From Gammaproteobacteria bacterium (lineage in GTDB: Bacteria > Pseudomonadota > Gammaproteobacteria > Acidiferrobacterales > UBA6901): a stretch of 30,913 nucleotides of DNA. Under the pieces are notes generated by a model. That model searched no databases and had not been told where the DNA came from. It worked only from the letters and a program-made list of their open reading frames with translations. Below, one piece after another: positions 1,336 through 30,249 of this stretch. The DNA is taken from NCBI GenBank assembly GCA_031405715.1, contig JANNJF010000105.1:1-30913 (forward strand), read 5' to 3'. The translations under genes were made by a program, and so were the position numbers. Numbering within the stretch: the first letter of the stretch is position 1; every line of letters begins with the position of its first letter.

Positions 1336-1360
1336 TGCACCCACACCCGGCACGCCCGAC

Positions 1361-1846
1361 ATGAACAATCTCACCCGCAGCCGTCTCGTGATCGCCAGCA
1401 CGTTTCTGGTCGCCATCATCCTGTCGATCCTGCCGGGTCCCGCGTGGGCCGAGCAGTTCCGCCCCAACTGGGTCGCACTGGTGCTGATCTACTGGTGCAT
1501 GGCCACCCCGCAGCGCGTCGGTGTGGGCACCGGTTGGATCATCGGCCTGATCATGGACGTGCTCTACGGATCGCTGCTCGGACAACAGGCGCTGGCCAAA
1601 ACCGTGCTGGCGTTTCTCACCCTGAAGCTGCACCTGCAGTTGCGCATGTTTCCGCGCTGGCAGCAGGCGGTGAGCGTACTGGTGCTGATCGCCACCAACC
1701 ACCTGCTGATCCTCTGGATCAAGAGCCTGGTGGGCCAGTCGCCGGCCAGCTGGACCTACTGGACCCCGAGCATCGTCAGCATGCTCATCTGGCCGTGGCT
1801 GTTCGTGATCCTGCGCGATGTACGGCGTCGCTGGCATGTAAGCTGA
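1361..1846 (+). CDS. mreD: Rod shape-determining protein MreD
   Basis: 161-aa multi-TM protein with RPNWVALVLIYW, GLIMDVLYGSLLG and LRMFPRWQQ motifs; operon position. Confidence 0.96.
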   Translation: MNNLTRSRLVIASTFLVAIILSILPGPAWAEQFRPNWVALVLIYWCMATPQRVGVGTGWIIGLIMDVLYGSLLGQQALAKTVLAFLTLKLHLQLRMFPRWQQAVSVLVLIATNHLLILWIKSLVGQSPASWTYWTPSIVSMLIWPWLFVILRDVRRRWHVS

Positions 1847-7965: not shown

Positions 7966-8084
7966 GGAACCTCTGAACAAGTGGCACAACCCATCTGGCT
8001 TTCGTTCCCTCACCTGTGGGTAGTGCCTCCCCGAAGGGGCCCGAAGTGCGCGGGGGAGAACAAGGGGGCTTGTTCAGAGCCTCT
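7966..8084 (+). repeat. Intergenic repeat/MITE-like element, copy 1 (short form)
   Basis: Begins GGAACCTCTGAACAAGTGGCA (same as 24885) and ends CTTGTTCAGAGCCTCT (11-bp core inverted repeat CTCTGAACAAG). Contains the GTGCCTCCCCGAAGGGG unit at 8016-8039. Confidence 0.8.
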
Positions 8085-8192: not shown

Positions 8193-8876
8193 TTATGCTT
8201 TCTTGCGCCGTGCGATACCGATCAACCCCAACAACCCCGAGCCGAGCAACCACGCGGCCGCCGGTAACGGCACCACCGTTGGCTGATACGAGGTCAGCAC
8301 CGTGCTGGCGCCCTTTGTTCCAAGCGCCGGCAGGCCGGTCAGATACGCCGAACCTTCGGCGCTGAACTGAGTGGCGTTGGTCTTGATGAAGAAAAAGCGA
8401 CTATCCTCGCCGGGATCGATGGCCGCCGGGGAAAAGCCGAATTGCATTTCCGTGCCGCTGGGGTTGCGGAACCCAAACGACGGGCCATCCACACCCAGCC
8501 CGTCGCTGCGCCAGTCCACGTCCGTGGTCCACGATCCAAAGTCGTTGCGCCCTGCGAGGATAATGGCGCCGTTGGAAGTGGCGTCGTTGATGATGCGGAA
8601 ATAAAAGTCGAGCGTGCCGTCGAGGGTGCTACGCACCACCCGGTCCTGGAGCGTGCCAGTGATCAAAAGCCCGCCGCCGATGTCGATGCTGAAGGGCCGC
8701 AGCGTGTCCGCGATAATCGGCCCCGCGAGTTCGGGTCGCGCCGCCGCCGTGGTACCGGACAGAAAGGAAAAGTCGCCCGGCACGAGCGATACCGCACGAG
8801 CGGGCGGAGTGAAAGCAGCCGCCATCAGCGCGGCCTGGCATAGGAATATGGCAAAAACATGTATGGTCTTTTTCAT
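8193..8876 (-). CDS. VPLPA-CTERM sorting domain-containing secreted protein 1
   Basis: Signal peptide (…AAAFTPPARA); C-terminal VPLPAAAWLLGSGLLGLIGIARRKKA (sorting motif + TM + basic tail); RBS AGGAGG upstream. Confidence 0.9.
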   Translation of the reverse strand: MKKTIHVFAIFLCQAALMAAAFTPPARAVSLVPGDFSFLSGTTAAARPELAGPIIADTLRPFSIDIGGGLLITGTLQDRVVRSTLDGTLDFYFRIINDATSNGAIILAGRNDFGSWTTDVDWRSDGLGVDGPSFGFRNPSGTEMQFGFSPAAIDPGEDSRFFFIKTNATQFSAEGSAYLTGLPALGTKGASTVLTSYQPTVVPLPAAAWLLGSGLLGLIGIARRKKA

Positions 8877-8915: not shown

Positions 8916-9632
8916 TCAAACAGCCGCGGAATCACGCCATGTCTTGCGCCGCGCGATGCCGATCAGACCCAACAGCCCCGAACCGAACAGCCACACCGCC
9001 GCAGGGACAGGCACTACATAGTTCAGATTATCGAACATGCCATACACAGGATGTCCCGAGCTGCTAAACGATGAAAATGCCACGAATTTGATATCCGCCG
9101 TGGGCCGGTTGAAAATCAAGGTTTCCCAGGTTTCACCGTACACGGACGCCGTATAATCCGCTTCCCCCAGAAAAGTCCCTGATGCATTAAACGCCTGCAG
9201 GAAAGGTTTATTGGTGGTCCCACCCACGTACTCGGGCGGCAGAACTGCCTTGGCATCAATACTGACGGAGGCAACGGGTGCGGCGAAGCTCGCCTTAAAA
9301 TATCCAAAACGTTCATCCACTAGAGTGCCGCCAGTCGCACCGAGTCCAATCACGTTCGGCGCGGAATTAGCCAGGACAGACGTGACGGCGTACGCGTTCC
9401 CGGTGCACAGGTTCGTGACTGTTCCGTTGAAACATCCCAATGTCACGCCTACACCGGTATATTGGGTATTGATGTTGGTCCCGCTGGCCACATCATCAAA
9501 GTTGATGAGAACAGCATGGGCGGCGGGGGTAAACATAATGACGCTCAGCATGGCAATGCCTTGGCCAGTGGCAAATATTTTTCTTTTGCCTGCGGCAATG
9601 ATGCCTTGAGACAGATTGTGGGATCTTTTCAC
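8916..9632 (-). CDS. VPLPA-CTERM sorting domain-containing secreted protein 2
   Basis: Start reassigned to GTG at 9632, which has AAGGAG 6 nt upstream. Signal peptide ends AHA; mature sequence begins VLINFDD; C-terminus VPVPAAVWLFGSGLLGLIGIARRK. Confidence 0.88.
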   Translation of the reverse strand: MKRSHNLSQGIIAAGKRKIFATGQGIAMLSVIMFTPAAHAVLINFDDVASGTNINTQYTGVGVTLGCFNGTVTNLCTGNAYAVTSVLANSAPNVIGLGATGGTLVDERFGYFKASFAAPVASVSIDAKAVLPPEYVGGTTNKPFLQAFNASGTFLGEADYTASVYGETWETLIFNRPTADIKFVAFSSFSSSGHPVYGMFDNLNYVVPVPAAVWLFGSGLLGLIGIARRKTWRDSAAV

Positions 9633-9667
9633 GATACGCTCCTTAGTATGTTGGTCTTTGGAAAGGT

Positions 9668-10303
9668 TTACTTTGTTGCTCCGCCTCGACGCCGCGCGAT
9701 ACCGATCAGCCCGAGCAACCCCGAACCGAACAGCCACGCGGCGGCAGGCAATGGCACCGCACGCACCAGAAACACTTCCTCGCCCGTGGCGTTGACGGGG
9801 GCGAACCCCGAGAGGCGGAAATCCACTTCCGGCGGCGAGACGTTGAAGCGCTCGCCGATGGTGAACGCCAGGTGTTGGATATTGTCGGTATACAGATCGG
9901 AAACCAGGCCGCGCGCGTATACGTGCGTCGTCGAGGTGTTGACACAGGTAAACAACGGGCAGAACCAGTCACGCAACTGCGCGGCCATGCTCAGCTGCGC
10001 AATATCGGTCGCGCCCTGCGTGAGGGACAGCGACCCGCCGAGCGACAGCATCTGGGCACTGGAGGCGATCGTCCACCCCGCGAAGTCGCCACCCGCGCCG
10101 AGTTCGGTTTCAATGCCGGCGTAACCGTAGCCCATGGTCTTGTCGAGCCGCAGGTAATCCAGATTGGCGTCCGAGTCGCGCAATATGCCGCTTGTACCGA
10201 ACAGGGCATCGTTGGCCACCACGACGGCGGCCGAGGCGCCGGTGTTCGCGAACGCCATTAACACCGACACGGCCAGTACCTTCCCGATGATTCTTGATGT
10301 CAT
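9668..10303 (-). CDS. VPLPA-CTERM sorting domain-containing secreted protein 3
   Basis: RBS AAGGAGG; signal peptide ending GASA; C-terminus VPLPAAAWLFGSGLLGLIGIARRR. Confidence 0.9.
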   Translation of the reverse strand: MTSRIIGKVLAVSVLMAFANTGASAAVVVANDALFGTSGILRDSDANLDYLRLDKTMGYGYAGIETELGAGGDFAGWTIASSAQMLSLGGSLSLTQGATDIAQLSMAAQLRDWFCPLFTCVNTSTTHVYARGLVSDLYTDNIQHLAFTIGERFNVSPPEVDFRLSGFAPVNATGEEVFLVRAVPLPAAAWLFGSGLLGLIGIARRRGGATK

Positions 10304-10678: not shown

Positions 10679-10973
10679 CGTTTCGTTCTTGTGCGTCATT
10701 CAAGCACAGCTGCGGGGAACAAACGCTGACGCGGATCAGTCGCGTCGCGAGAAAGACAGTGGCGTGGCTCGGGTGCGGTAGGTCAATCTGGCCTTCAATT
10801 TGCTTGTCAGGCCGCTCTCAATTGCGTTAGGTTGATCGTTCGTCGTGCCGGATAGAGTGATGAAGTTGCGACAGTGATGCGGTGCTCAGGACCAGCAAGG
10901 GCCTCGGCGCACAAGGGAAATGAAGCCCCACGCCGGCCCCAGGCGAAAACGGGTTTCCCGCCGGTTTTTGGGG

Positions 10974-10979
10974 TAAAAT
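10974..10979 (+). promoter_or_regulatory. Candidate sigma70 -10 element (TAAAAT) upstream of dat
   Basis: GG-TAAAAT lies about 55 nt before the dat ATG; no good -35 box is visible. Confidence 0.3.
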
Positions 10980-11032
10980 GCATTCCACCTAAACCGTGAC
11001 ATCGTCGGCCTAACCCTGACCCGCATCCCCCT

Positions 11033-11911
11033 ATGAATATCCCCAAACGCGTTTATCTCAACGGCCGGTTCCTGCCCGCCGAATCCGCCAGCATCCCGGT
11101 GTTTGACCGCGGATTCATCTTCGGCGACGGGGTGTACGAAGTGATCCCGGTATACGGCCAGCGGCTGTTCCGTCTGCCGCACCACCTGCAGCGTCTGGAC
11201 ATGAGCCTTGCGGCCATCGGCCTCAAGCAACCCATGAGCCACCGTCAGTGGGCCGAGGTTCTCGAGCAGGTGGCGCGGGAAAACGACGCCGGCGATAACG
11301 GCGACCAGTCGGTCTACCTGCAGGTGACCCGCGGCGTGGCGGCACGCGATCACGCCTATCCCAAGGACACTACCCCCACGGTCTTCGCCTATGCCCAGGC
11401 GCTCACCTATCCGGACCCGGCGCAACTGCGCGCCGGCGTCACGGCCGTCACGACACCCGACCTGCGCTGGTCGCGCTGTGACATCAAGGCCATCGCGCTG
11501 CTGCCGAATGTCATGATGCGCCAATACGCCGTCGAGCGCGGGGCCGCCGAGGCCATCCTGATACGCGACGGCCACATGACGGAGGGTGCCGCCAGCAATA
11601 TCTTTGTGGTCGAGGCCGGACGTCTGCTTACACCACCCAAGGGGCTGTACATCCTGCCCGGCATCACGCGTGATCTGGTGGTGGAGTTGGCGCTGGCCCA
11701 CGGTATTGAGTGCGCGGAAGAAGACATCAGCGAACAGCGCCTGCTGGCGGCGGAGGAAGTGTGGATGACCAGCTCGACCAAAGAGATCATGCCCATCGTG
11801 CGCATCAACGACCAACCGGTGGGCGGCGGCCGACCCGGCCCGCTGCATGTGCGCATGCACGCCTTGTATCAGGACTACAAACAGGCGTTCCGCGCCGGCC
11901 TTGTGGACTGA
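11033..11911 (+). CDS. dat: D-amino-acid aminotransferase (class IV PLP enzyme)
   Basis: DRGFIFGDGVYEV, RWSRCDIK (PLP lysine), EGAASNIF and ILPGITR; typical dacA-dat-ybeD-lipB-lipA context. Confidence 0.9.
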   Translation: MNIPKRVYLNGRFLPAESASIPVFDRGFIFGDGVYEVIPVYGQRLFRLPHHLQRLDMSLAAIGLKQPMSHRQWAEVLEQVARENDAGDNGDQSVYLQVTRGVAARDHAYPKDTTPTVFAYAQALTYPDPAQLRAGVTAVTTPDLRWSRCDIKAIALLPNVMMRQYAVERGAAEAILIRDGHMTEGAASNIFVVEAGRLLTPPKGLYILPGITRDLVVELALAHGIECAEEDISEQRLLAAEEVWMTSSTKEIMPIVRINDQPVGGGRPGPLHVRMHALYQDYKQAFRAGLVD

Positions 11912-11915
11912 CACC

Positions 11916-12200
11916 ATGTCCCTGCCCCACCAGCCCGGGCCGGACGTACCGCAACTGTCCTTCCCCTGCGCCTTCGACGTCAAGGCCATGGGCAGACACA
12001 GCCCGGATTTTGCGGCCAGGATGCGTGAGCTGGTGGGCCGCCACGTGCCCCCGCCTGAGCTGCACGCAGTCAGCACACGCATGAGCCGCCAAAACCAATA
12101 TGTCTCCGTCACCCTGAGCATCACCGCCTCGAGCTACGATCAGCTCAACGCCATCTATCGGGATCTCGCGGCGTGCACGGATGTACTGTTTGCGCTCTGA
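11916..12200 (+). CDS. ybeD: YbeD family (DUF493) protein
   Basis: 94 aa from ATG 11916: LSFPCAFDVKAMG, SRQNQYVSVTL, QLNAIYRDL; immediately upstream of lipB. Confidence 0.9.
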   Translation: MSLPHQPGPDVPQLSFPCAFDVKAMGRHSPDFAARMRELVGRHVPPPELHAVSTRMSRQNQYVSVTLSITASSYDQLNAIYRDLAACTDVLFAL

Positions 12201-16947: not shown

Positions 16948-17154
16948 GCAGCTTACAGAACAAGTTCCCTCTCCGTGCGGTTTTTGCCTCCCCGAAGGGG
17001 GCCCGCGCACTTCGGGGGAGAAGGTTAGGGTGTGGGGGATAATCAGCGATTTTTCCTCACCCTGTCCCCCTCCGTGCGGGTTGTGCCTCCCCGAAGGGGG
17101 CAAAGGGGAGAGGGAACGTAGCGTGACAGCTTCTGCTACTTGTTCAGAGGCTCC
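16948..17154 (-). repeat. Intergenic repeat/MITE-like element, copy 2 (reverse orientation, carries two 27-nt inserts)
   Basis: The reverse complement of 17131-17154 is GGAGCCTCTGAACAAGTAGCAGAA, 22/24 identical to 24885-24908. The internal BoxC-like hairpin pair aligns with copy 3. Flanked by CTAG at 17155-17158. Confidence 0.85.
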
Positions 17155-20355: not shown

Positions 20356-21123
20356 CTATGGGGTGGCGGCTTGATAATACCCCAGCCGCTCAGATAATCG
20401 CCGGCCAGCCTCCATCACCTGCGGAATCCAATCGTCTCTGCGACGTTCGATGGGTGCCGACACCGACAGTCCGGCGACGACGCCTCCGCTGCTGTCCCTC
20501 ACCAACACCCCGATGCAGCCCACGCCCAGCTCGGCCTCCTCGTCATCCAGCGCGTAGCCGCGGCGCACCGATGCGTTGGCGTCCTTGATTAAGGCCTCCA
20601 CGTCGGCACGGGTATTCGGGGTATATACCCGCAGCCCGGTACGCTGCGCGTAGTCGCGGCAGGCCTGCTCGCCCATTTCCCCCAGCATTAATTTTCCCAC
20701 CGCCGTCACATGCAGTGGGGCATGCCCGCCGATCACCTGTTCGACGCGTATCACGCGGGTGGTGGTGGCGCGTTCGATATACACAACTTCGTCACCCTGG
20801 CGCACCGTCAGGTTAATGCTTTCACCCAGCTCGTTGCGCAGCCACTCCATGACCTCCTTGGCCTGGGGACGCAGGTCACCGCGGGCACTGACACGACCCC
20901 CCAGGTACATCAGTTTCGCCCCCAGCCCATAGTGCCCCGCGGCGTTGCGCTCGACATAACCGAGCCCGGTGAGGGAGGCGAGGATGCGAAAGGCAGTCGA
21001 TGGGTGCAGGCCGGTGTCGGCGGACAAGACCTTGAGACTCGCCGGTTCGTCGTAGCGGGCGATGGCATCCAGCAGATGTCCCATGCGCTCGATCACTTGT
21101 ATTGGGGGGGTCGGGTTAGCCAT
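20356..21123 (-). CDS. IclR-family transcriptional regulator
   Basis: IQVIER...LSADTGLHPSTAFRIL HTH; effector domain with VVYIE, PLHVTAVGKL and RRGYALDDEEAELGVGCIG. Confidence 0.95.
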   Translation of the reverse strand: MANPTPPIQVIERMGHLLDAIARYDEPASLKVLSADTGLHPSTAFRILASLTGLGYVERNAAGHYGLGAKLMYLGGRVSARGDLRPQAKEVMEWLRNELGESINLTVRQGDEVVYIERATTTRVIRVEQVIGGHAPLHVTAVGKLMLGEMGEQACRDYAQRTGLRVYTPNTRADVEALIKDANASVRRGYALDDEEAELGVGCIGVLVRDSSGGVVAGLSVSAPIERRRDDWIPQVMEAGRRLSERLGYYQAATP

Positions 21124-21137
21124 CTTGATCCATCCTA

Positions 21138-21192
21138 TTCCGTATCGTGAAAACGATTATGTATTGTGAAATGACACATGTCTAGGTATGGT
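21138..21192 (+). promoter_or_regulatory. Candidate IclR operator pair overlapping a sigma70 promoter for the downstream operon
   Basis: Direct repeats TTCCGTATCGTGAAA (21138-21152) and TTATGTATTGTGAAA (21157-21171), 12/15 identical. TTGTGA (21164-21169)-N17-TATGGT (21187-21192). RBS AAGGAG before ATG 21255. Confidence 0.55.
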
Positions 21193-21254
21193 TAGGTAAA
21201 GCTTGGTTAATTTTACCGATACGTCACCCGAATTCCTTTTAAGGAGAGCATACA

Positions 21255-23477
21255 ATGAGCACCCGTCACGCCGCCGCCCAGTCCGCGATTCCTGATTTTT
21301 GTGAGGGAATTCAGTATTTTGGAGAGTCATGGCCGGAATTCGCCCGGCATGCAGGCAAACCGGCCATTGCCCCGGGGTCGGCCCGCATCGACAACGCCGC
21401 GGACCCGGCTGCGGTATACCAGACCCTGCTGGCCGCCGATGCCCTGCGCTACCTGACCCTGCAGATGTGCGGCGCCAAGAGCTCCGGCCACCCCGGGGGT
21501 TTTGCCAGCAGTGCCGAGGCCTACGCGGCGCTGGTGATGCTGGGCCATACCAATATTGTTACGGAGGTGGGTCACCACGCCCCGGGCTTTTACAGCGCCA
21601 TGTTCCTGGATACTTCCTTGGAGGAAATGGGCATACGCACGGTGGCGGACATGCGCGCGCGTTTTCGCGAGCGCCATGGTCTACTCGGACACTTGTCCGG
21701 TGCCATCCCCGGCATCCTGTCCCCTGCCGGCCCCCTCGGCCAGGGACAACACTTCGCCATGGCCGGCGCCCTGCTGCACCCGGGCACCCTGTTCCCCTTC
21801 ACCCTCGGTGACGGCGGCATGGGCGAGCCCTATGTGCTGTCGTCCATGATGCATTTCCATACTGCCTTTCCCAAGTCCACCAACTTCTTGCCGACACTGG
21901 TATGGAACGGCTACAGCCAGGAACACCATTCCATGGTGTCGCGTTTTACTAACGACGAGATGATCGCCTACTGGAAGGGTCACGGCTTCCAGGAGGTGGT
22001 GCTGGTGAATGCCAAGGACTTTGACGACACCAAGCAGGCGTCGGCCTACGTCGACAGCACGGCTTTTTCCTTCCAGCAACGCCTGGCCTTTGCCCAGGCG
22101 GTGTTGACCGGGATGGACAAGGCGGCGAAGTTGGCCCTGGGCGGCACGCGCACGGTGTTCATCATCAAGCAACTGAAGGGCGCCGGGGTGCACGCCCTGG
22201 GCGCAAAGTCCCATAACCTCTACCCGGCCGATGCCCTGGACAAGCCGCACATCATCAGCGCGCTGCAACGCCGCGCGCTGCCCGCCGCGGCCTGGCAGTT
22301 GGTGCGCGACAATTTCTCCCGCGCCGGCGGCGGCCCGGCGGTGAAGACCGTGGTGACCGAGTCGGTGCTGGAGATCGCATCTTTTGGCAAACTGCCGCTG
22401 CAGGATTTCGCCGTGGGTGAAAAACACGTGCCGGCCACCGCCATGGGCGCGCTGGTGGCGGCGGTGGGCAAGGCCGACCCGCGTTTCGTGGTGACCAATG
22501 CGGACGGCAACGAGGCCTCGGCCATGGCCAACATCAACGTGGCGTTGAAGATCCGCCATCCGACGGCGGATGATCTGTATAACCAGCAACCCAATGGTCA
22601 GGTGTACGAACCCTTGAGCGAAGATGCCTGCGCCGGCCTGGCCGCCGGTCTCGCGCTGTTTGGTTCGCGTTCCTTGTGGTTGTCGTATGAAAGTTTCGCC
22701 ATCAACGGTCTGCCCATCATACAAACCGTCACCCAGGCCATGGCGGAACTGCGACGCAAGACGCCGTCGGTGGTATGCATGTTCACCGCCGGCGCCCTGG
22801 AGCAGGGGCGCAACGGCTGGACCCATCAGCGCCCCGAGGTGGAAAACTACTTCGCCGCCATGATGCGCAACGGCAACGTCTACCCGCTGTTCCCGGCGGA
22901 TGCCAACATGATACAGGTGGCCTACGACTGGGCGGTCGGCACCCACAACAAAGGCATTATCATCATCGCCTCCAAGAGCCCGCTGCCGGTATACACCACT
23001 CTGGAACAATCGCGCACCGCTATCGCCAACGGCGCTATCGCCCTGTACGAAAGCAAGACCGGCGCCAAGGGCACGGTGGTCATGGCCGTCACCGGCGACA
23101 TGGTGTTGCTGCCGGTGTTCGAGGCGCGCGACAAGCTGGAGCAGGATGGTTACCGGGTGCGCATCGTCTGCGTGGCGAATCCGCGTCGTCTGTATCGTCC
23201 TACCGACATCGCCTGGGATACCGTGGCACAACCGGACAATGCCCTCATGGATGACGATCACTTCAATGCGTTGTTCGACGGCGATGTGTTGCTGGCGGTG
23301 AGCGGTGGTCCGAGCGGGTCTCTCGAACCCGTGCTACTGCGCACGCGGGCAGCGCGGCTCGACGTGTTCGCCTGGAAGCGCGGCGAGACCACCGCGTCCC
23401 CCGGCGAGATCATGAGTTTCAACGGCATCACCGCCGAGGCCATGACGGCACGCGTCAAGGCACTGATGGGGGTCTGA
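21255..23477 (+). CDS. ThDP-dependent phosphoketolase-family enzyme (short ~740-aa type with transketolase-like N-terminal motifs)
   Basis: ThDP motif GDG-x30-N (LGDGG...VWNGY). XFP-like VYEPLSE, SYESF and NGWTHQ; TK-like SGHPG and GPLGQG. Exact reaction is not established, so no gene symbol is given. Confidence 0.85.
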   Translation: MSTRHAAAQSAIPDFCEGIQYFGESWPEFARHAGKPAIAPGSARIDNAADPAAVYQTLLAADALRYLTLQMCGAKSSGHPGGFASSAEAYAALVMLGHTNIVTEVGHHAPGFYSAMFLDTSLEEMGIRTVADMRARFRERHGLLGHLSGAIPGILSPAGPLGQGQHFAMAGALLHPGTLFPFTLGDGGMGEPYVLSSMMHFHTAFPKSTNFLPTLVWNGYSQEHHSMVSRFTNDEMIAYWKGHGFQEVVLVNAKDFDDTKQASAYVDSTAFSFQQRLAFAQAVLTGMDKAAKLALGGTRTVFIIKQLKGAGVHALGAKSHNLYPADALDKPHIISALQRRALPAAAWQLVRDNFSRAGGGPAVKTVVTESVLEIASFGKLPLQDFAVGEKHVPATAMGALVAAVGKADPRFVVTNADGNEASAMANINVALKIRHPTADDLYNQQPNGQVYEPLSEDACAGLAAGLALFGSRSLWLSYESFAINGLPIIQTVTQAMAELRRKTPSVVCMFTAGALEQGRNGWTHQRPEVENYFAAMMRNGNVYPLFPADANMIQVAYDWAVGTHNKGIIIIASKSPLPVYTTLEQSRTAIANGAIALYESKTGAKGTVVMAVTGDMVLLPVFEARDKLEQDGYRVRIVCVANPRRLYRPTDIAWDTVAQPDNALMDDDHFNALFDGDVLLAVSGGPSGSLEPVLLRTRAARLDVFAWKRGETTASPGEIMSFNGITAEAMTARVKALMGV

Positions 23478-23481
23478 CGAC

Positions 23482-24798
23482 ATGCCGCAGACCAAGATCA
23501 TCGTACTGGACGATGATCCCACCGGGTCGCAGACCGTGCACGGCTGCCTGTTGCTGACGCGCTGGGATGCGGACAGCCTGCGCGCCGCTTTGGCCGACGC
23601 GGCGCCGCTGTTTTTTGTGTTGACCAACACCCGCGGCATGCATGCCGCGCAGGCCGCCGACGTCACGCACACGGTCAGCCGCAATCTCAAGACGGTATTG
23701 GACGAACTGGCGCTGGCGGGCACTCACATCAATCCGATTCTGGTCAGCCGCTCCGATTCCACCCTGCGCGGCCATTACCCGGTGGAGACCGACATTATCG
23801 CCGAGGAGCTGGGGCCCTTCGATGCGCACTTTCTGGTGCCGGCGTTCTTCGAGGGCGGGCGCATCACCCGTGACAGCGTGCATTATCTGCTGGTCGATGG
23901 TAAACCGATACCGGTGCACGAAACTGAATTCGCCCGTGACTCGGTATTTGGTTATACCCACAGTTATCTGCCGGCCTACGTCGAGGAGAAAACCCACGGC
24001 ACCATCAAGGCCACCACGGTACAGCGTTTTCTCCTGACGGATGTGCGCGGTGACTGCCTGGATCGATTGCTGCAACTACATGGGAATGCCTGCTGCGTGG
24101 TCGATGCCGAAACGCAGGCCGATCTGGATAATTTCTGCCGTCAGCTGCACGCCGCCACAGCACAGGGCAAACGCTTTCTTTTTCGCAGTGCCGCCAGCCT
24201 GCTGACCTCATTGGCCAACCTCGGGGCCCAGCCGGTGCCGGCGGTGGACATGCGTCAATATGTGCGCGCCGGCCGGGCCGGCGCGGTCATCGTCGGTTCA
24301 CACGTCAAGAAAACCACCCAGCAACTGGAACAACTCCTGAAGCAACCGGGTGTCGTAGCCCTGGAGGTGGAGGTGGACCGTATCGACCCGGAGGGTCCGA
24401 CCCTGCTGACGGAGTTGCTGGCGACGGCGCACAAGGCCCATGCCGCCTGCGTAACCCCGGTGATTTACACCAGCCGCACGGAAAAAACCTTTGCCGACCA
24501 GAAGACCCGACTGGCCTTTGGCGAACGGGTCTCAGCCTTCCTCATGCAGGTGGTGCGCGGATTGCCACCGACCCTGGGTTTCCTCATCAGCAAAGGCGGC
24601 ATCACCTCCAACGACGTGTTGAGTTCCGGCCTGGCGCTGAAAACCGCACGGGTGCTCGGACAGATACTGCCGGGCTGTTCCGTGGTGCGCTGCCCCCCGG
24701 ATCATCCACGTTATCCCGAGATGCCGGTGGTCATTTTTCCCGGCAACGTGGGCGACGAAAACGGACTGGCGACGGTTTATCAGCGGCTGAGTGACTAA
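23482..24798 (+). CDS. Four-carbon acid sugar kinase family protein (DUF1537/DUF1357)
   Basis: VLDDDPTG, SRSDSTLRGH, VPAFFEGGRIT, VVDAET, VIVGSHV, ISKGGITS and IFPGNVG; starts 4 nt after the upstream stop codon. Confidence 0.9.
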   Translation: MPQTKIIVLDDDPTGSQTVHGCLLLTRWDADSLRAALADAAPLFFVLTNTRGMHAAQAADVTHTVSRNLKTVLDELALAGTHINPILVSRSDSTLRGHYPVETDIIAEELGPFDAHFLVPAFFEGGRITRDSVHYLLVDGKPIPVHETEFARDSVFGYTHSYLPAYVEEKTHGTIKATTVQRFLLTDVRGDCLDRLLQLHGNACCVVDAETQADLDNFCRQLHAATAQGKRFLFRSAASLLTSLANLGAQPVPAVDMRQYVRAGRAGAVIVGSHVKKTTQQLEQLLKQPGVVALEVEVDRIDPEGPTLLTELLATAHKAHAACVTPVIYTSRTEKTFADQKTRLAFGERVSAFLMQVVRGLPPTLGFLISKGGITSNDVLSSGLALKTARVLGQILPGCSVVRCPPDHPRYPEMPVVIFPGNVGDENGLATVYQRLSD

Positions 24799-24860
24799 TG
24801 ACCAGACCGGCGCAGGCTGGCGCTCACCAGAGAAGCGTCTGGGCCGCGGCGCCCGGCGCA

Positions 24861-24869
24861 TGTTATCTT
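24861..24869 (+). promoter_or_regulatory. Candidate extended -10 promoter (TGnTATCTT) upstream of glcD
   Basis: TG-T-TATCTT matches TGnTAnnnT and lies just before repeat copy 3. Confidence 0.35.
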
Positions 24870-24884
24870 TAGATATTCACACAA

Positions 24885-25061
24885 GGAACCTCTGAACAAG
24901 TGGCAGAAATTATCATGTTAGGTCCCCTCTCCCTTTGGGAGAGGGACAGGGTGAGGGAAAAATCCATGATCATCCCCCTCACCCTAACCCTCTCCGTGCG
25001 GTTTGTGCCTCCCCGAAGGGGGCCCGAAATACGCGGGGAGAGGGGACTTATTGGAGGTTCC
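24885..25061 (+). repeat. Intergenic repeat/MITE-like element, copy 3 (177 bp)
   Basis: Left end GGAACCTCTGAACAAGT; right end reverse-complements to GGAACCTCCAATAAGT. Internal CCCTCTCCC-ttt-GGGAGAGGGACAGGGTGAGGG ... CCCCTCACCCTAACCCTCTCC...GGAGAGGG. Flanks are ACAA/ATAA. Confidence 0.85.
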
Positions 25062-25080
25062 ATAACGACCGATACGCGCC

Positions 25081-26574
25081 ATGAGTGACACATCCATCCC
25101 CAGTGAAGAACCCAACGCCGCGACCCGCGAGTCCCTGGTGACCGCGCTGCGCGCGTTCCTGTCGGACGCGGCGATCCTGCATGCGCCGGAAGACACCCGG
25201 CCCTACGAGTGCGACGGTCTGTCGGCCTATCGCCAGGTACCGTGGCTGGTGGTGTTGCCGAACACAGTGGAGCAGGTGCAGCACATCCTGCGTCTGTGTC
25301 ATGCACGTCGTATACCCGTGGTGGCGCGCGGTGCCGGCACCGGTCTGTCCGGCGGCGCGCTGCCGCACGCACAGGGTGTGCTGCTGAGCCTGGCGAAGTT
25401 CACGTCGATACTCGCCATCGACCCGGCCAACCGCACGGCGCGGGTGCAGCCGGGGGTACGCAACCTGGCCATCTCCCAGGCCGCGGCAACGCACGGTCTG
25501 TATTACGCCCCCGACCCATCGTCGCAGATCGCCTGCACCATCGGCGGCAATGTGGCGGAGAACTCCGGCGGTGTGCACTGCCTCAAGTACGGACTGACGG
25601 TGCACAACATCCTCAAGCTGGAGATCGTCACTATCGACGGTGAACGCATCACCATCGGCAGCGAGGCCCTCGATGCACCGGGCTACGACCTGCTGGCACT
25701 CATGACCGGCTCGGAGGGCATGCTTGGCATTATCGTCGAGGTCAGCGTCAAACTGCTGCCGATTCCGGAACGCGCGCAGGTCATCCTCGCGGCCTTCGAT
25801 GACGTGGCCAAGGCGGGTGCTGCGGTGGGCGCTATCATCAGTGCCGGCATCATACCCGCGGGGCTCGAGATGATGGACCGGCTGGCGATATGCGCGGCTG
25901 AGGACTTCGTGCACGCCGGCTATCCCACCGAGGCCGATGCGATATTGTTGTGTGAGGTCGACGGCACCAACGAAGAAGTCTCCGAACACGTCATGCGGAT
26001 CCAGGAACTGATGCAGCATTGTGGCGCCACCGAGGTGCGTACCGCACGTGATGAACAGGAGCGCATGACCTTTTGGAAGGGGCGCAAGGCCGCGTTCCCG
26101 GCGGTGGGTCGTTTGTCGCCCGATTACTACTGCATGGACGGCACGATTCCGCGCAAGCGCCTGCCGGAGGTATTGCTGCGCATGCGTACCTTGTCGGAGG
26201 AATATGGCCTGGCCGTGGCCAACGTCTTCCACGCCGGCGACGGCAACCTGCATCCGCTGATCCTGTACGACGCCAACAAGCCTGGTGAACTGCAGCGCAC
26301 CGAGGAATTCGGCGGGCGCATCCTCGAGCTGTGCGTCGAGGTCGGCGGCACCATCACCGGCGAACACGGTGTCGGCATGGAAAAGATCAATCAGATGTGT
26401 GTACAGTTCAGCAGTGCCGAGTTACAGCAATTTCATGGGATCAAACACGCCTTTGATCCACAGGGTCTGCTCAATCCGGGCAAGGCCGTACCCACGTTGC
26501 ATCGCTGCGCCGAATTCGGCGCGCAACACGTACACCATAATTCGCTGCCTTTTCCCGAGCTAGAGCGTTTTTAA
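25081..26574 (+). CDS. glcD: Glycolate dehydrogenase/oxidase subunit GlcD
   Basis: ARGAGTGLSGGA FAD motif, YAPDPSSQIACTIGGNVAENSGGVHCLKYG, HAGDGNLHP and ITGEHGVG. Confidence 0.96.
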   Translation: MSDTSIPSEEPNAATRESLVTALRAFLSDAAILHAPEDTRPYECDGLSAYRQVPWLVVLPNTVEQVQHILRLCHARRIPVVARGAGTGLSGGALPHAQGVLLSLAKFTSILAIDPANRTARVQPGVRNLAISQAAATHGLYYAPDPSSQIACTIGGNVAENSGGVHCLKYGLTVHNILKLEIVTIDGERITIGSEALDAPGYDLLALMTGSEGMLGIIVEVSVKLLPIPERAQVILAAFDDVAKAGAAVGAIISAGIIPAGLEMMDRLAICAAEDFVHAGYPTEADAILLCEVDGTNEEVSEHVMRIQELMQHCGATEVRTARDEQERMTFWKGRKAAFPAVGRLSPDYYCMDGTIPRKRLPEVLLRMRTLSEEYGLAVANVFHAGDGNLHPLILYDANKPGELQRTEEFGGRILELCVEVGGTITGEHGVGMEKINQMCVQFSSAELQQFHGIKHAFDPQGLLNPGKAVPTLHRCAEFGAQHVHHNSLPFPELERF

Positions 26575-26576
26575 TT

Positions 26577-27638
26577 ATGCAGCGCGATTGCACACAAGAA
26601 TTCAGCGCAGCGATCCAAGCGGCCGTGGCCGATAACACCCCCCTCAATATTGTCGGAGGCGGCAACAAGGGATTCCTCGGAGGCCCACCCCGGGGGACAC
26701 TTCTCGCGGCTGCGGTGCATCGCGGCATACTTCACTACGAACCGAGCGAACTGGTGATCACGGCGCGTGCCGGCACACCACTGCGCGAACTGGAACACAC
26801 CCTGGCGGAACACGGTCAGGCGCTGGCATTCGAGCCGCCGCACTTCGGCGACACTGCAACCCTGGGTGGTGCCGTGGCCTGTGGCCTGTCGGGCCCGCGA
26901 CGCCCCTACGCCGGTGCGCTGCGTGATTTTGTACTCGGATGCCACATCATCAATGGCCGCGGCGAGATCCTGCACTTCGGCGGCGAAGTCATGAAAAATG
27001 TCGCCGGCTATGATGTGTCGCGCCTGATGTGCGGCGCCCTGGGCACCCTGGGGCTGTTGCTCGACATCAGTATCAAAGTCCTGCCGCGACCGGCGACGGA
27101 AACCACTCTGGTACAGGAGTGCACCACCGCGGCGGCGTTGGCCCGCATGAATGCCTGGGCCGGGCGACCCCTGCCCCTGTCCGCCGCCGTGTATGACGGC
27201 GAGCAACTCAGCTTCCGTCTGTCCGGCGCGGCCAGCGCGGTAAAAGCGGCGCGTCAGTCCATGGGCGGCGATCCCGTGGCGGATGCCGATCGCTTCTGGC
27301 GCGACATCCGCGAGCAGCAACACGGTTTCTTCTCCGACGCCAAATCCCTGTGGCGCCTGTCTCTGCCACCGGCCGCGGCGCCGCTGGATCTGCCGGGGAA
27401 ATGCCTGATCGACTGGGGTGGCGCACAGCGCTGGCTTATTTCCGACGCGGAAGCTGCGGTGATCCGCGCAACGGCCGTGGCGGCCGGTGGTCACGCCACC
27501 CTTTTCCGTAGCGGCACGCGGGGCACTGAACGCTTCCACCCGTTGCCGACCAATCTACTGGCGTTACATCGCGCGCTCAAACAAACCTTTGACCCCTCCG
27601 GTATATTCAATCCTGGGCGGCTGTATGCCGATCTTTAG
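26577..27638 (+). CDS. glcE: Glycolate dehydrogenase FAD-binding subunit GlcE
   Basis: YEPSELVITARAGT, ATLGGAVACGLSGPRR, VMKNVAGYDVSRL and KQTFDPSGIFNPGR. Confidence 0.96.
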   Translation: MQRDCTQEFSAAIQAAVADNTPLNIVGGGNKGFLGGPPRGTLLAAAVHRGILHYEPSELVITARAGTPLRELEHTLAEHGQALAFEPPHFGDTATLGGAVACGLSGPRRPYAGALRDFVLGCHIINGRGEILHFGGEVMKNVAGYDVSRLMCGALGTLGLLLDISIKVLPRPATETTLVQECTTAAALARMNAWAGRPLPLSAAVYDGEQLSFRLSGAASAVKAARQSMGGDPVADADRFWRDIREQQHGFFSDAKSLWRLSLPPAAAPLDLPGKCLIDWGGAQRWLISDAEAAVIRATAVAAGGHATLFRSGTRGTERFHPLPTNLLALHRALKQTFDPSGIFNPGRLYADL

Positions 27639-27664
27639 CGCCGGATAATCAGCGACCCGACTGC

Positions 27665-28900
27665 ATGCAAACCACGATCCCCGACATCATCGCGCAAACC
27701 CCCGCGGGGCAGGAAGCCGATCAGATCCTGCGCAGTTGCGTACACTGCGGGTTCTGCACCGCCACCTGTCCTACCTATCTGTTGCTCGGGGACGAGCTGG
27801 ACGGACCGCGCGGGCGTATTTACCTCATCAAGCAGGCGCTTGAAGGCACGGCGGTCACGCGCAAGACCCAGGTACATCTGGATCGCTGCCTGACATGCCG
27901 CGCGTGTGAGACCACCTGCCCTTCCGGCGTGCGTTATGGTCGTCTGCTGGAGATCGGTCGCGGCATGGTGGAGAAAAAAGTCCGTCGCCCATTGCTGGAG
28001 CGTGGCATGCGTCGCGCGTTGCGGCTGTTGATTCCCTATCCGCAGCGCTTTGCCGCATTATTATGGCTGGGCCGTCTGATGTCACCGCTGCTGCCCGCAG
28101 ACGTCAAACGCAAGCTGCCGGCCAGGCAGGTACCACAATCCTGGCCGGGCGCGCGGCATGCGCGTGTCATGCTGGTGCTGGAAGGGTGTGCACAAAGTGT
28201 CGTCACGCCCCATACCAATCTTGCGGCGGCGCGCGTACTGGATCGTCTGGGTATCTCCCTGGTGCGCGTCAGTCAAACGGTGTGCTGCGGCGCCGTGAGC
28301 CAGCACCTCTCCGCCCACGACGAGGCGCTCGCTATGATGCGCCGTAACATCGACGCCTGGTGGCCGCACCTGGAGGCAGGTGCCGAGGCCATCGTCATCT
28401 CCGCCAGCGGTTGCAGCGCCATGGTGAAGGAATACGGCGAGGCGCTGCAACACGATCCACACTACGCGCATAAAGCACAGCGCATCGCCGCCCTGGCACG
28501 GGACTTAAGCGAAATCATCGCGGATCTGCCCCTCGATCGCCTGAACATCAACGGGCACGGACGACGCATTGCCTTTCACTCCCCCTGCACATTGCAACAC
28601 GGGCAGAAGATCCTGGGACGCGTCGAGGCGGCACTGCGCACCGCGGGCTACACCCTCTCTGCAGTAACCGACGGCCACTTATGCTGCGGGTCCGCCGGGA
28701 CCTATTCCCTGCTCCAATCGACGTTATCCCGCCAGCTACTGGACAACAAACTGAGGGCCTTGCAGGGCGACGCCCCGGAATGCATCGTCACGGCCAACAT
28801 CGGCTGCCAGCTGCATCTGGCCGGCGGTGCACACGTGCCCGTTGGACATTGGATAGAACTGCTGGATGAGGCAAGCGCGCGCGGTTTGTTGGCGCGATAA
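27665..28900 (+). CDS. glcF: Glycolate dehydrogenase iron-sulfur subunit GlcF
   Basis: CVHCGFCTATCP and CLTCRACETTCP ferredoxin motifs; two CCG domains (CCGA, CCGSAG); TANIGC. Confidence 0.96.
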   Translation: MQTTIPDIIAQTPAGQEADQILRSCVHCGFCTATCPTYLLLGDELDGPRGRIYLIKQALEGTAVTRKTQVHLDRCLTCRACETTCPSGVRYGRLLEIGRGMVEKKVRRPLLERGMRRALRLLIPYPQRFAALLWLGRLMSPLLPADVKRKLPARQVPQSWPGARHARVMLVLEGCAQSVVTPHTNLAAARVLDRLGISLVRVSQTVCCGAVSQHLSAHDEALAMMRRNIDAWWPHLEAGAEAIVISASGCSAMVKEYGEALQHDPHYAHKAQRIAALARDLSEIIADLPLDRLNINGHGRRIAFHSPCTLQHGQKILGRVEAALRTAGYTLSAVTDGHLCCGSAGTYSLLQSTLSRQLLDNKLRALQGDAPECIVTANIGCQLHLAGGAHVPVGHWIELLDEASARGLLAR

Positions 28901-28908
28901 CAGTCGGG

Positions 28909-30225
28909 CTATGTCAGCCGGGTAGTAAGTTCGGCTTCTGCCGCGACCTTCATGTGCAACAACTGCTCAGTGATATTCGACCACTTTGATGCGGTGCGTG
29001 TGATGTGCATGGTTATAGCCGTGGAGAATTTTTCATAGACATAGTCTTGGCCATCCCGCAGCAGCAGGGAAACGTCTTCTATGAAGGCAATCAGCGCCTC
29101 GATTTTCTCGAGCTTTTTCTGCGTGGCTCGTACATCCTCATCCTGCTCCTTGGAGTGAAAATAATCTTCGGTATTCGCAACCATTGGACCCAGGGCGTTA
29201 TTAAACTTGTCAACGTCGAGCATGAACATGCCAAACGAGCGCTGATACACCCGGAGGTGGTCCTGCACGGTGGGAAACAGGGATTGCAACCCAGGAAAAC
29301 TATCCATCGCCTTTAAAGAGATTTTGTATATATCCAGACAGGGAGGCTTGCCAGGTTCGGTGCGGATTTTGTCCGGGCCGCGCATATTTGGCTTCATCGA
29401 CATCTGACACATCTGCTTAAAGTCTTTTAGCGAGCGCGCAATTTCATTGCTGATGGTATTGGCGCAGCGCTTTTTGTACTGGTAATCGGATTCGGCTTCC
29501 GCATAATTGAACGACTGATAGACCTTCTGCTTTACCGCCTGCTCCTGGCGGCTCTCTTCCATTGCGTCATTTTCAAAACGCTGTCTTAGTCGTTCACGTG
29601 CCTCCTGCGCCAAGCGGAATACGTGGGCACTGCGCGCCTCCACTTCCTTGGCTTCTTTGTACTCGGTCATCTGGCGATCGAATCCGATGACCGTGCGCAC
29701 AAAATCACTGGAAAATTCCAGCAGCGGACCAACAAAATGGGTGTTCTCCTCCGGACTAATGGCCATGGCAGCAAGTTGCTGCTTGAGTGCTTCGTGCTTG
29801 CTGACCAGCGATTGATGCGACTTTCTGATTCCCGTGAGGATGGTAGTCATTTCACTAAAGGTCTTATTGAGTGCCCGATTGACCTTGAGAATACCAATCA
29901 CCTTGCGCAACATGGTTTCTTCACCGGTGGCCCGCAGAAACAGGGTGCGCAGACTGGCCCGGGCATCCTCCAGCTGTTCGGCATTCAGCAGGCCATGCTC
30001 TTCGGCATAGTTGATGACAATCAGCATCAGCAATGATTCTTTTTGCTGGGAATTGAGCGGGGGTAAAGAGTTTTCGGCCGGAATCGCTGGCAAATTCTGG
30101 TTGGTCATACTCAGTAGAGAATCCGAAGTGCGAAGTAGGTCACCGAATTGAAAGCATAGACGGTAGTGCCCCGCCGGGGAAGGAAACTTCCGGGTCAGGC
30201 AAGGGAGGTTTAAATGACCGCTCAT
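28909..30225 (-). CDS. Hypothetical all-alpha/coiled-coil protein (start uncertain: 30225 or 30108)
   Basis: Long low-GC ORF rich in E/K/Q/L with heptad-like stretches and no recognisable motif. ATG 30225 has GGAGG 5 nt upstream, but ATG 30108 leaves more room for a promoter after the terminator. Confidence 0.7.
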   Translation of the reverse strand: MSGHLNLPCLTRKFPSPAGHYRLCFQFGDLLRTSDSLLSMTNQNLPAIPAENSLPPLNSQQKESLLMLIVINYAEEHGLLNAEQLEDARASLRTLFLRATGEETMLRKVIGILKVNRALNKTFSEMTTILTGIRKSHQSLVSKHEALKQQLAAMAISPEENTHFVGPLLEFSSDFVRTVIGFDRQMTEYKEAKEVEARSAHVFRLAQEARERLRQRFENDAMEESRQEQAVKQKVYQSFNYAEAESDYQYKKRCANTISNEIARSLKDFKQMCQMSMKPNMRGPDKIRTEPGKPPCLDIYKISLKAMDSFPGLQSLFPTVQDHLRVYQRSFGMFMLDVDKFNNALGPMVANTEDYFHSKEQDEDVRATQKKLEKIEALIAFIEDVSLLLRDGQDYVYEKFSTAITMHITRTASKWSNITEQLLHMKVAAEAELTTRLT

Positions 30226-30249
30226 AGCCACCTCCACAGCTCTACACCC

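Follow-up and report, generated by a model that had tools for sequence, protein, structure and literature searches.

An IclR-family regulator, a thiamine diphosphate (ThDP)-dependent enzyme and a DUF1537-family kinase, encoded together beside the glycolate oxidase genes glcDEF in a gammaproteobacterium, probably mark an undescribed means of glycolate disposal in CO2-fixing bacteria; the chemistry that we propose for them is a prediction and stands unproven. The genes lie on contig JANNJF010000105.1 (C105) of GenBank assembly GCA_031405715.1 (Gammaproteobacteria bacterium; Acidiferrobacterales, UBA6901), a metagenome-assembled genome from freshwater sediment (3.87 Mb, 90% complete, 865 contigs); the whole analyzed stretch of 30,913 nucleotides (nt), forward strand, is called the window here. 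Taking gene linkage and co-occurrence together, we consider it rather likely that the regulator, the ThDP enzyme and the kinase work in the glycolate/glyoxylate metabolism of autotrophs.

The regulator gene (20356–21123, minus strand; Pfam HTH_IclR and IclR_C) is separated by a divergent intergenic region of 131 nt from the ThDP enzyme gene (21255–23477, plus strand, 740 amino acids [aa]; weak matches to XFP, XFP_N and Transket_pyr). The kinase gene (23482–24798, plus strand, 438 aa; SBD_N and NBD_C) starts 4 nt past the stop of the ThDP gene, and glcDEF follows after a spacer of 282 nt (24799–25080). The three contiguous glc genes, all on the plus strand, encode the subunits of a glycolate oxidase/dehydrogenase: the FAD subunit GlcD (25081–26574) scores slightly below both NCBIfam equivalog cut-offs (NF008408, 874.7 of 897 bits; TIGR00387, 563.5 of 567.9 bits), and GlcE (26577–27638; NF008439, 533.5 bits against a cut-off of 284) and the Fe-S subunit GlcF (27665–28900; NF008434, 637 bits against 333) lie well over theirs. 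Open reading frame (ORF) calls and family scans agreed with the gene positions and order given in an earlier, sequence-only reading of this DNA. That reading had also reported the window to be free of genes for malate synthase and glyoxylate carboligase (Gcl), which we confirmed; neither was found above cut-off in the window's own 90%-complete genome, in which Rubisco is present.

Conservation of the gene set

When prokaryotic species were scanned, each represented by a single genome, the ThDP enzyme was found at 70 to 79% identity in at least 577 species genomes, among them Gallionellaceae, Thiobacillus, Sulfuriferula, Nitrotoga, Chromatiaceae, Acidiferrobacteraceae, Zetaproteobacteria and filamentous cyanobacteria. 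Eighty loci were retrieved, of which 68 were of proteobacterial type, from other species, and 12 cyanobacterial. A kinase ortholog (61 to 77% identity) lay directly 3′ of the ThDP gene in all 61 proteobacterial loci with enough sequence, and a divergent IclR gene lay upstream of it in 57 of 60. The arrangement is not due to chance: the linkage of the ThDP clade to kinase and regulator is near-obligate and is far from unique to the genome in which the sequence-only reading had noticed it. Linkage to glycolate oxidase is looser, glcDEF being found inside the 10-kb flanks of 30 of the 68 proteobacterial loci (17 of the 30 loci with ample sequence on both flanks); where glcD follows the kinase in these other species, at most 154 nt separate the two in 21 of 25 cases, and overlaps are frequent.

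The 12 cyanobacterial loci carry neither the regulator nor the kinase near the ThDP gene. All five cyanobacteria tested nonetheless encode a kinase ortholog (~730 bits) elsewhere in the genome; the pair is thus maintained even where its genes are not linked.

Association with Rubisco and glycolate oxidation

To place the pair in its metabolic setting, 301 genomes sampled evenly across the window's class were compared, comprising 28 carriers from ~24 families and 273 non-carriers. Rubisco was encoded in 25 carriers against 101 non-carriers (P = 7 × 10−8) and GlcF in 27 against 116 (P = 1 × 10−8), by Fisher tests that ignore phylogenetic relatedness. The three Rubisco-negative carriers are the least complete genomes (≤86%), and among Rubisco-positive genomes alone GlcF remained more frequent with the pair (24 of 25 carriers, 72 of 101 others; P = 0.008). 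Gcl was found in 0 of the 28 carriers and 3 of the 273 non-carriers; malate synthase occurred in 7 carriers and 96 non-carriers (P = 0.4) and was absent from the other 21 carriers. The co-occurrence suggested by the sequence-only reading, with Rubisco and glycolate oxidase and without the genes for Gcl and malate synthase, held for Rubisco, GlcF and Gcl; malate synthase, missing from most carriers, showed no anticorrelation with the pair.

The genes that recur around the unit in other lineages also belong to glycolate and glyoxylate metabolism: lutABC, glcG, tartronate semialdehyde reductase (TSR), malate synthase G and 2-hydroxyacid dehydrogenase. Malate synthase G is encoded within or close to the cluster in locus L029 (by NCBIfam model), in L021 (the protein clusters with that of L029) and, 13 kb away, in genome G118. 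TSR above the TIGR01505 cut-off is encoded in the operon at several loci, including L013 and L029, in the latter next to or after glcF. Together with the absence of Gcl from every carrier, this recalls a glycerate pathway built from non-orthologous parts, in which the ThDP enzyme would replace Gcl (2 glyoxylate to tartronate semialdehyde and CO2, or an equivalent reaction), a reductase would yield glycerate, and the DUF1537 protein would serve as glycerate or hydroxypyruvate kinase. TSR-like genes are indeed enriched among carriers (10 of 28 against 27 of 273), and the arrangement of allR and gcl in E. coli is analogous. TSR-like genes were not found, however, in the other 18 carriers, among them two with complete genomes and the organism of the window itself, and TSR was accordingly rejected as an obligate partner. 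Four of five carriers already own a canonical glycerate kinase (GlxK or MOFRL), on which ground we also dismissed the DUF1537 protein as the glycerate kinase of the cell. Gcl as it is known comes from another ThDP superfamily, and the invariant histidine cluster of the present enzyme (described below) suits a dihydroxyethyl-ThDP rather than a hydroxymethyl-ThDP intermediate. Overall, we regard a glycerate pathway of this kind as improbable.

A different setting is suggested by the Gallionellaceae, in which lutCBA, glcG and a gene like those of MOFRL glycerate kinases lie upstream of the unit. In about 7 of the 68 loci, all from this family, the operon is extended by a Liv-type ATP-binding cassette (ABC) transporter, a CoA-acylating methylmalonate/malonate-semialdehyde dehydrogenase (739 bits), TSR, a 2-hydroxyacid dehydrogenase and sometimes a major facilitator superfamily (MFS) transporter (L013, 13640–21813; alike in L012, L022, L008, L010, L011 and L002). 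Such transporters, dehydrogenases and reductase, with lutABC upstream, would fit facultative autotrophs that take up and break down an organic or hydroxy acid (lactate, glycolate, a C4 acid sugar or the like), with no relation to oxygenation by Rubisco. The confinement of the extensions to one family, the presence of the core trio in many lineages of obligate lithoautotrophs and in cyanobacteria, and the near-complete association with Rubisco all speak against this explanation, to which we give a small probability.

Regulation and expression

The regulator belongs to the IclR family (IclR_C, 126 bits; HTH_IclR, 49 bits), and its relatives of known structure include AllR (1TF1) and IclR (2O99). 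Its best NCBIfam models are BhcR (153 bits against a cut-off of 350), PcaR/PcaU, KdgR, IclR (111 of 380) and AllR (97 of 406), all below cut-off; of these, BhcR, IclR and AllR are linked to glyoxylate. An IclR-family regulator divergent from a glyoxylate-consuming enzyme that forms carbon-carbon bonds, as we propose here, is also seen in E. coli, in the allR and gcl pair, and in the BhcR-controlled beta-hydroxyaspartate cycle; a further resemblance of the present unit to these systems and to E. coli glcDEFGB is its physical linkage to the genes for glycolate oxidase and, at some loci, to those for TSR and malate synthase G. The unit differs from them in lacking Gcl, Bhc enzymes and GlcC, and in pairing an enzyme of the transketolase/phosphoketolase superfamily with a kinase.

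Between the divergent genes lies a 33-nt element (21140–21172, plus strand) that is conserved in the promoter regions of other species, with the consensus TCrCATTrTGAAAaCgATTntGTATTGyGAAAT and two half-sites of the ATTrTGAAA type 19 nt apart. Of 62 intergenic regions between the regulator and ThDP genes, each from a different species, 57 contain it; its orientation never varies, and it usually lies no more than ~140 nt (254 nt at most) before the start of the ThDP gene. At two mismatches or fewer it occurs once in the window's genome, so that a search for further regulon members returned only the site between the two genes. The element is a putative operator of the IclR protein, and its conservation gives good grounds to regard these genes as a regulatory unit of their own.

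As weak evidence of expression, contigs from a freshwater metatranscriptome matched the ThDP gene exactly at 21210–21458 and 22833–22983, a match in which DNA carry-over is possible. The first contig begins 45 nt upstream of the ThDP ATG, just 3′ of the 33-nt element. No contig in that one metatranscriptome bridged the spacer between the kinase and glcD, and no terminator-like site was found within the spacer. It is occupied instead by a copy (24885–25028), recognized from nested inverted repeats and blastn, of a palindromic repeat resembling repetitive extragenic palindromes or miniature inverted-repeat transposable elements (REP/MITE). The repeat, ~110 to 145 nt long with GGGAGAGGG/CCCTCTCCC arms, gave 166 blastn hits on dozens of contigs of this genome at ~88 to 95% identity, with further copies in the window at 16967–17101 and 7966–7986, and is probably one reason why the assembly is fragmented. 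Given this copy and the short gaps in 21 of 25 relatives, the long distance between kinase and glcD is the result of a secondary insertion.

The ThDP-dependent enzyme

The ThDP enzyme falls outside the established families on either side of it. Its Pfam matches to XFP (51.6 bits) and XFP_N (37.7 bits) exceed the gathering thresholds, that to XFP_C (19.9 bits) does not, and Transket_pyr is weak (37.7 bits). It scores far below every NCBIfam phosphoketolase (PK) model (best 103 bits against cut-offs of 777 to 1518) and likewise below the transketolase (TK) models TIGR00232 and NF004556 (38 to 44 bits against 575 to 682; TIGR00232, 38 of 682). When 1.84 billion 50%-identity representatives were searched exhaustively, the family proved to be essentially one cluster; the only other full-length matches were a single relative at 58% identity and then canonical PKs at 26 to 31%, the remainder being fragments, with no intermediates to the PKs. 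The 58%-identity relative (P0121) was set aside: it lies at a contig end beside GntR/aminotransferase and peptide ABC transporter genes, with no kinase in view. By these comparisons the enzyme forms an isolated, slowly evolving orphan clade between phosphoketolase and transketolase.

The closest relatives in both sequence and fold are the phosphoketolases (Xfp) of Bifidobacterium (3AHC and 3AI7) and Synechococcus (8IO8), with which the enzyme shares a three-domain ThDP fold and the NGY Mg motif. It differs from them in being ~60 to 85 residues shorter and 26 to 31% identical, in carrying GSGHPGG and AGPLGQG motifs of transketolase type, in a remodeled Glu437/Ser440/Arg442 segment, and in the company of its own kinase, IclR regulator and glcDEF. 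The transketolases TktA and CbbT have the SGHPG, GH, GHx, GPLGQG, GDG and THQ motifs in common with it and lack its PK-type insertion bearing Tyr478. A search of PDB profiles gave a PK match at E = 3 × 10−30. An AlphaFold2 model (mean predicted local distance difference test score [pLDDT] 78, active-site loops of low confidence) did not clearly separate the two families in Foldseek (query-normalized TM-score [TMq] 0.70 to PK and 0.64 to TK).

The published list of Bifidobacterium PK active-site residues (PMC10547157) was mapped onto the family, the His64 position through the TK alignment and the SGHPG motif, and invariance was checked in 20 sequences from proteobacteria and cyanobacteria. At least 10 of the 13 listed residues are identical. 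His64, which falls within the transketolase-type GSGHPGG motif, corresponds to H79, and His97, His142, Gly155, His320, Glu479 (the cofactor glutamate), Tyr501, Gln546, Asn549 and His553 correspond to H107, H146, G159, H320, E456, Y478, Q517, N520 and H524, all invariant. Two positions are changed, and invariant in their changed form (Gln321 to N321 and His548 to R519), and the alignment of Ser440 is ambiguous. The invariant cluster H79, H107, H146, H320 and H524 is the one that holds the C1 hydroxyl of dihydroxyethyl-ThDP in both TK and PK. Outside the published list, PK Lys605 is retained as the invariant K574. In PK, His548 is part of the site for the terminal phosphate of the substrate, and Lys605 shows the largest pKa shift upon phosphate binding (PMC13455062). 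The replacement of the former by Arg519 and the retention of the latter as Lys574 therefore suggest that the channel for the substrate has, at its far end, kept or strengthened a site for anions.

Alignment to the carriers' own TKs with hhalign indicates that the TK phosphate clamp has been lost, R358, S385, H461 and R520 being replaced by A396, N415, A512 and K574, and the stereo-determining Asp469 by Asn520 (TK positions in E. coli numbering). Judged by these alignments, the second shell of the enzyme is PK-like and the motifs of its pyrophosphate-binding (PP) domain are TK-like, with Arg519 unique to the family.

The simplest account of such an enzyme would be redundancy: a second PK isozyme acting on xylulose 5-phosphate or fructose 6-phosphate, beside a kinase for an unrelated acid sugar, with glcDEF adjacent by accident. 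The largely retained PK catalytic residues and the database annotation as phosphoketolase agree with this, as does the treatment in print of Synechocystis sll0529 as an unverified second PK (PMC7744508, PMC11257934). Under the name pket2, sll0529 and Nostoc alr1850 have been described as a separately clustering, unverified second cyanobacterial PK (PMC7744508) and entered into cyanobacterial flux models (PMC7744508, PMC9034593, PMC11257934). The two are reputed orthologs only; we found cyanobacterial members of the ThDP family at 70% identity. All five carriers tested, including the window's genome, nevertheless encode a canonical PK of ~800 aa (~1100 bits) together with acetate kinase (AckA), and Pta was found in none of the five. 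Carriers thus own a standard PK/AckA branch besides the orphan enzyme, which argues that the latter does something else. Identity of 26 to 31% to real PKs with no intermediates, scores far under all NCBIfam PK cut-offs, a kinase and regulator of its own always alongside, a pair kept across phyla and the strong association with GlcF and Rubisco also speak against redundancy. That a 28%-identical paralog with its own regulator and kinase is a mere isozyme is unlikely, and we consider redundancy as a whole quite improbable. In the window's genome the canonical PK is present only as partial copies on contigs C858 and C744, the assembly being fragmented; on C858 the N-terminal part (3–539) adjoins ackA (772–1704, minus strand), forming an xfp-ackA pair.

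The DUF1537 kinase

Membership of the kinase in DUF1537 is clear from its Pfam domains (SBD_N, 193 bits; NBD_C, 135 bits), from the N-terminal DDDPTG at residues 10 to 15, and from the invariance of D10–G15 (DDxTG) and D92–G97 (DSTLRG). Assignment within the superfamily is another matter. The only NCBIfam matches are to DtnK (63 bits against a cut-off of 450) and OiaK (13 bits), and the only PDB profile matches are 4XFM (1 × 10−9) and 4XFR. The protein represents, by these scores, a divergent DUF1537 subfamily, and the OtnK-type label applied to it by the sequence-only reading is not justified.

The founding study of DUF1537, by Zhang and colleagues in PNAS in 2016, reportedly found that these kinases phosphorylate the terminal hydroxyl of four-carbon acid sugars. 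The phosphorylated form of one of them, 3-oxo-tetronate 4-phosphate, is decarboxylated to dihydroxyacetone phosphate (DHAP). The window's genome encodes two class II aldolases, one of them MtnB (186 bits, above cut-off) and the other with a score of 70 of 250 bits to the OtnC model; none is above the OtnC cut-off. The unassigned aldolase was considered as a conserved decarboxylase and discarded, its orthologs being missing from two complete carrier genomes. OtnC, OtnI and LtnD/DenD were found neither beside the ThDP-kinase pair nor conserved in carrier genomes. The caveat of the sequence-only reading that the window holds no OtnC-like decarboxylase therefore stands, and extends to conservation among the carriers.

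A candidate route from glyoxylate to triose phosphate

In the route that we favor, the regulator, the ThDP enzyme and the kinase would form one regulated unit acting on glyoxylate, which GlcDEF would make from Rubisco-derived glycolate. The regulator would free the 33-nt operator once glyoxylate, or a related 2-oxo or 2-hydroxy acid, rises. The ThDP enzyme would then build dihydroxyethyl-ThDP from a ketol donor, either a ketose phosphate or hydroxypyruvate, and, where phosphoketolase dehydrates the dihydroxyethyl unit, would transfer that unit to the aldehyde group of glyoxylate, the carboxylate of the acceptor being held in the anion site of the invariant Arg519 and Lys574. The product would be 2,4-dihydroxy-3-oxobutanoate (3-oxo-tetronate), to the terminal hydroxyl of which the kinase would add a phosphate; the resulting beta-keto acid phosphate would lose CO2 to give DHAP, which would return to the Calvin cycle. 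The first of these conversions would be the transketolase half-reaction with glyoxylate as acceptor, and the last two would be the reactions of OtnK and OtnC in the branch encoded by E. coli ygbJKLM (Zhang et al. 2016). The kinase of that branch belongs to the same superfamily; its hosts are heterotrophs that utilize acid sugars, unlike the autotrophic hosts of the ThDP-kinase pair.

Ketol transfer from such a donor to glyoxylate, with phosphorylation and decarboxylation to DHAP and CO2, is the best fit to the gene content, and no other scheme gives every conserved component a job; its product would be just the kind of C4 acid, with a terminal hydroxyl, on which DUF1537 kinases act. It was also the route put forward in the sequence-only reading, and of the evidence gathered since, the linkage, the pairs kept apart in cyanobacteria, the association with Rubisco and GlcF, the absence of Gcl from all 28 carriers and of malate synthase from 21, the glycolate and glyoxylate genes among the neighbors, the coexisting canonical PK, the invariant histidine cluster, Arg519 with Lys574 and the 33-nt element favor it; the PK-like enzyme, a kinase that is not OtnK-like and a decarboxylase that is not conserved do not. 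With the PK-like active site and the missing decarboxylase weakening the case, we hold this chemistry tentatively and rate it as clearly less than even.

Several observations weigh against it or against its link to photorespiratory glycolate. The sequence-only reading had built its route on transketolase-type chemistry, and by hhalign the family lies far nearer to PK (E = 2 × 10−41) than to the carriers' own TKs (E = 8 × 10−7). The equivalents of Tyr501, Asn549, Gln546, Lys605 and NGY, specific to PK, are all kept; of these, Tyr501, Asn549, Gln546 and NGY have been tied to the exclusion of aldose acceptors and to PK activity (PMC11648648), and their retention points to an acyl phosphate as product rather than to ketol transfer. 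No OtnC-type decarboxylase conserved among carriers was found, and the kinase shows no OtnK affinity, its DtnK and OiaK scores being the only ones. For each glycolate the route gives up one CO2, and the glycerate pathway only half as much. An anticorrelation between the pair and malate synthase was looked for and not seen in the counts given above, and the tests in that comparison take no account of relatedness among genomes. Of the 96 sampled genomes with both Rubisco and GlcF, 50 have neither the pair nor malate synthase nor Gcl, so other sinks exist, and the pair is an alternative to them rather than a sink that every such genome needs. In Synechocystis, the reputed ortholog is not induced at low CO2 (ratio 1.10; PMC7744508).

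In a rival reading, the enzyme would be a lyase of PK type acting on a small anionic ketose (for example 3-oxo-tetronate, the 4-phosphate made by the kinase, or hydroxypyruvate) and releasing acetyl phosphate together with glyoxylate or CO2. The C2 unit bound to ThDP would undergo dehydration or elimination and then phosphorolysis, as in PK. Acetyl phosphate would pass to AckA and Acs and, where malate synthase is present, condense with glyoxylate to malate. The much stronger profile match to PK than to TK and the identity of at least 10 of 13 published PK active-site residues would be explained directly, AckA is present in all five carriers tested, some genomes encode malate synthase G within the cluster or not far from it (L029, L021 and, 13 kb away, G118), and Arg519 with Lys574 would suit a carboxylate or phosphate tail. 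Carriers include obligate autotrophs, however, with no known endogenous source of a C4 keto acid, and genes of LtnD/OtnI type do not adjoin the pair. A lyase of this kind would make glyoxylate in carriers of which 21 of 28 lack both malate synthase and Gcl to clear it, and the five carriers tested already have a canonical PK and no Pta. We find the lyase doubtful as a result, while taking it seriously. The likelihood left over from ketol transfer and its four rivals belongs to something not yet thought of.

Literature linking the ThDP family or sll0529 to DUF1537 kinases or to glycolate was not found, the nearest mention in print being the unverified pket2. New here are the coexistence of a canonical PK and AckA with the orphan enzyme in all five carriers tested, the lack of a conserved OtnC-type decarboxylase, the 33-nt element and the change of His548 to an invariant arginine.

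Neighboring genes and other features

Cyanobacterial neighborhoods proved uninformative, with nothing beyond an ORF for a coiled-coil membrane protein, minCDE and a cytochrome P450. The first of these, an ORF of 215 to 221 aa with membrane and coiled-coil segments and no Pfam family, lies directly 5′ of the kinase gene in four of four cyanobacteria (L089 to L092; for example, L091, 8391–9056); neither the proteobacterial loci nor the window's genome has it. Nine of the 12 cyanobacterial loci have the cytochrome P450 gene next to that of the ThDP enzyme. A 4.2-kb contig binned as Campylobacterota (L060) also carries a ThDP-kinase pair, at 70 and 64% identity; Campylobacterota normally fix CO2 by the reverse tricarboxylic acid (TCA) cycle, and this pair reflects either mis-binning or lateral transfer.

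Within the window, the flanks are unrelated to the unit, with rlmC and glgB upstream and cell-wall genes beyond them. An ORF of 442 aa convergent with glcF (28909–30237, minus strand) has no Pfam or NCBIfam match and sits in the part of the window with the lowest GC content (51% against ~62%), and may be foreign DNA. Three further ORFs on the minus strand, at 8193–8876, 8916–9737 and 10886–12124 (227, 273 and 412 aa), matched nothing in Pfam at E ≤ 1 × 10−6; the window being rich in GC, they may not all be real genes.

Implications

Glycolate disposal in chemolithoautotrophs and many cyanobacteria is only partly known, and most of the carriers sampled lack both Gcl and malate synthase. A conserved, biochemically untouched pair of enzymes tied to GlcDEF and Rubisco in hundreds of species is a concrete candidate for a missing step. 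The boldest form of the proposal, which we think rather unlikely as a whole, is that several Calvin-cycle lineages of proteobacteria share with cyanobacteria an undescribed two-enzyme shunt for phosphoglycolate salvage, in which an enzyme derived from PK would have been repurposed to join a C2 ketol unit to glyoxylate and a dedicated kinase would pull the C4 keto acid toward DHAP and CO2. Such a shunt, if real, would return glycolate carbon without release of ammonia and without NAD(P)H or Gcl, and a short, ammonia-free route from glyoxylate to triose phosphate would be a natural template for photorespiratory bypasses in plants and cyanobacteria, which engineers at present assemble from designed enzymes. 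If the enzyme proves instead to be a phosphoketolase for acid ketoses, it would represent a new reaction class in the ThDP ketolase superfamily and would correct the phosphoketolase and pket2 annotations carried in cyanobacterial flux models.

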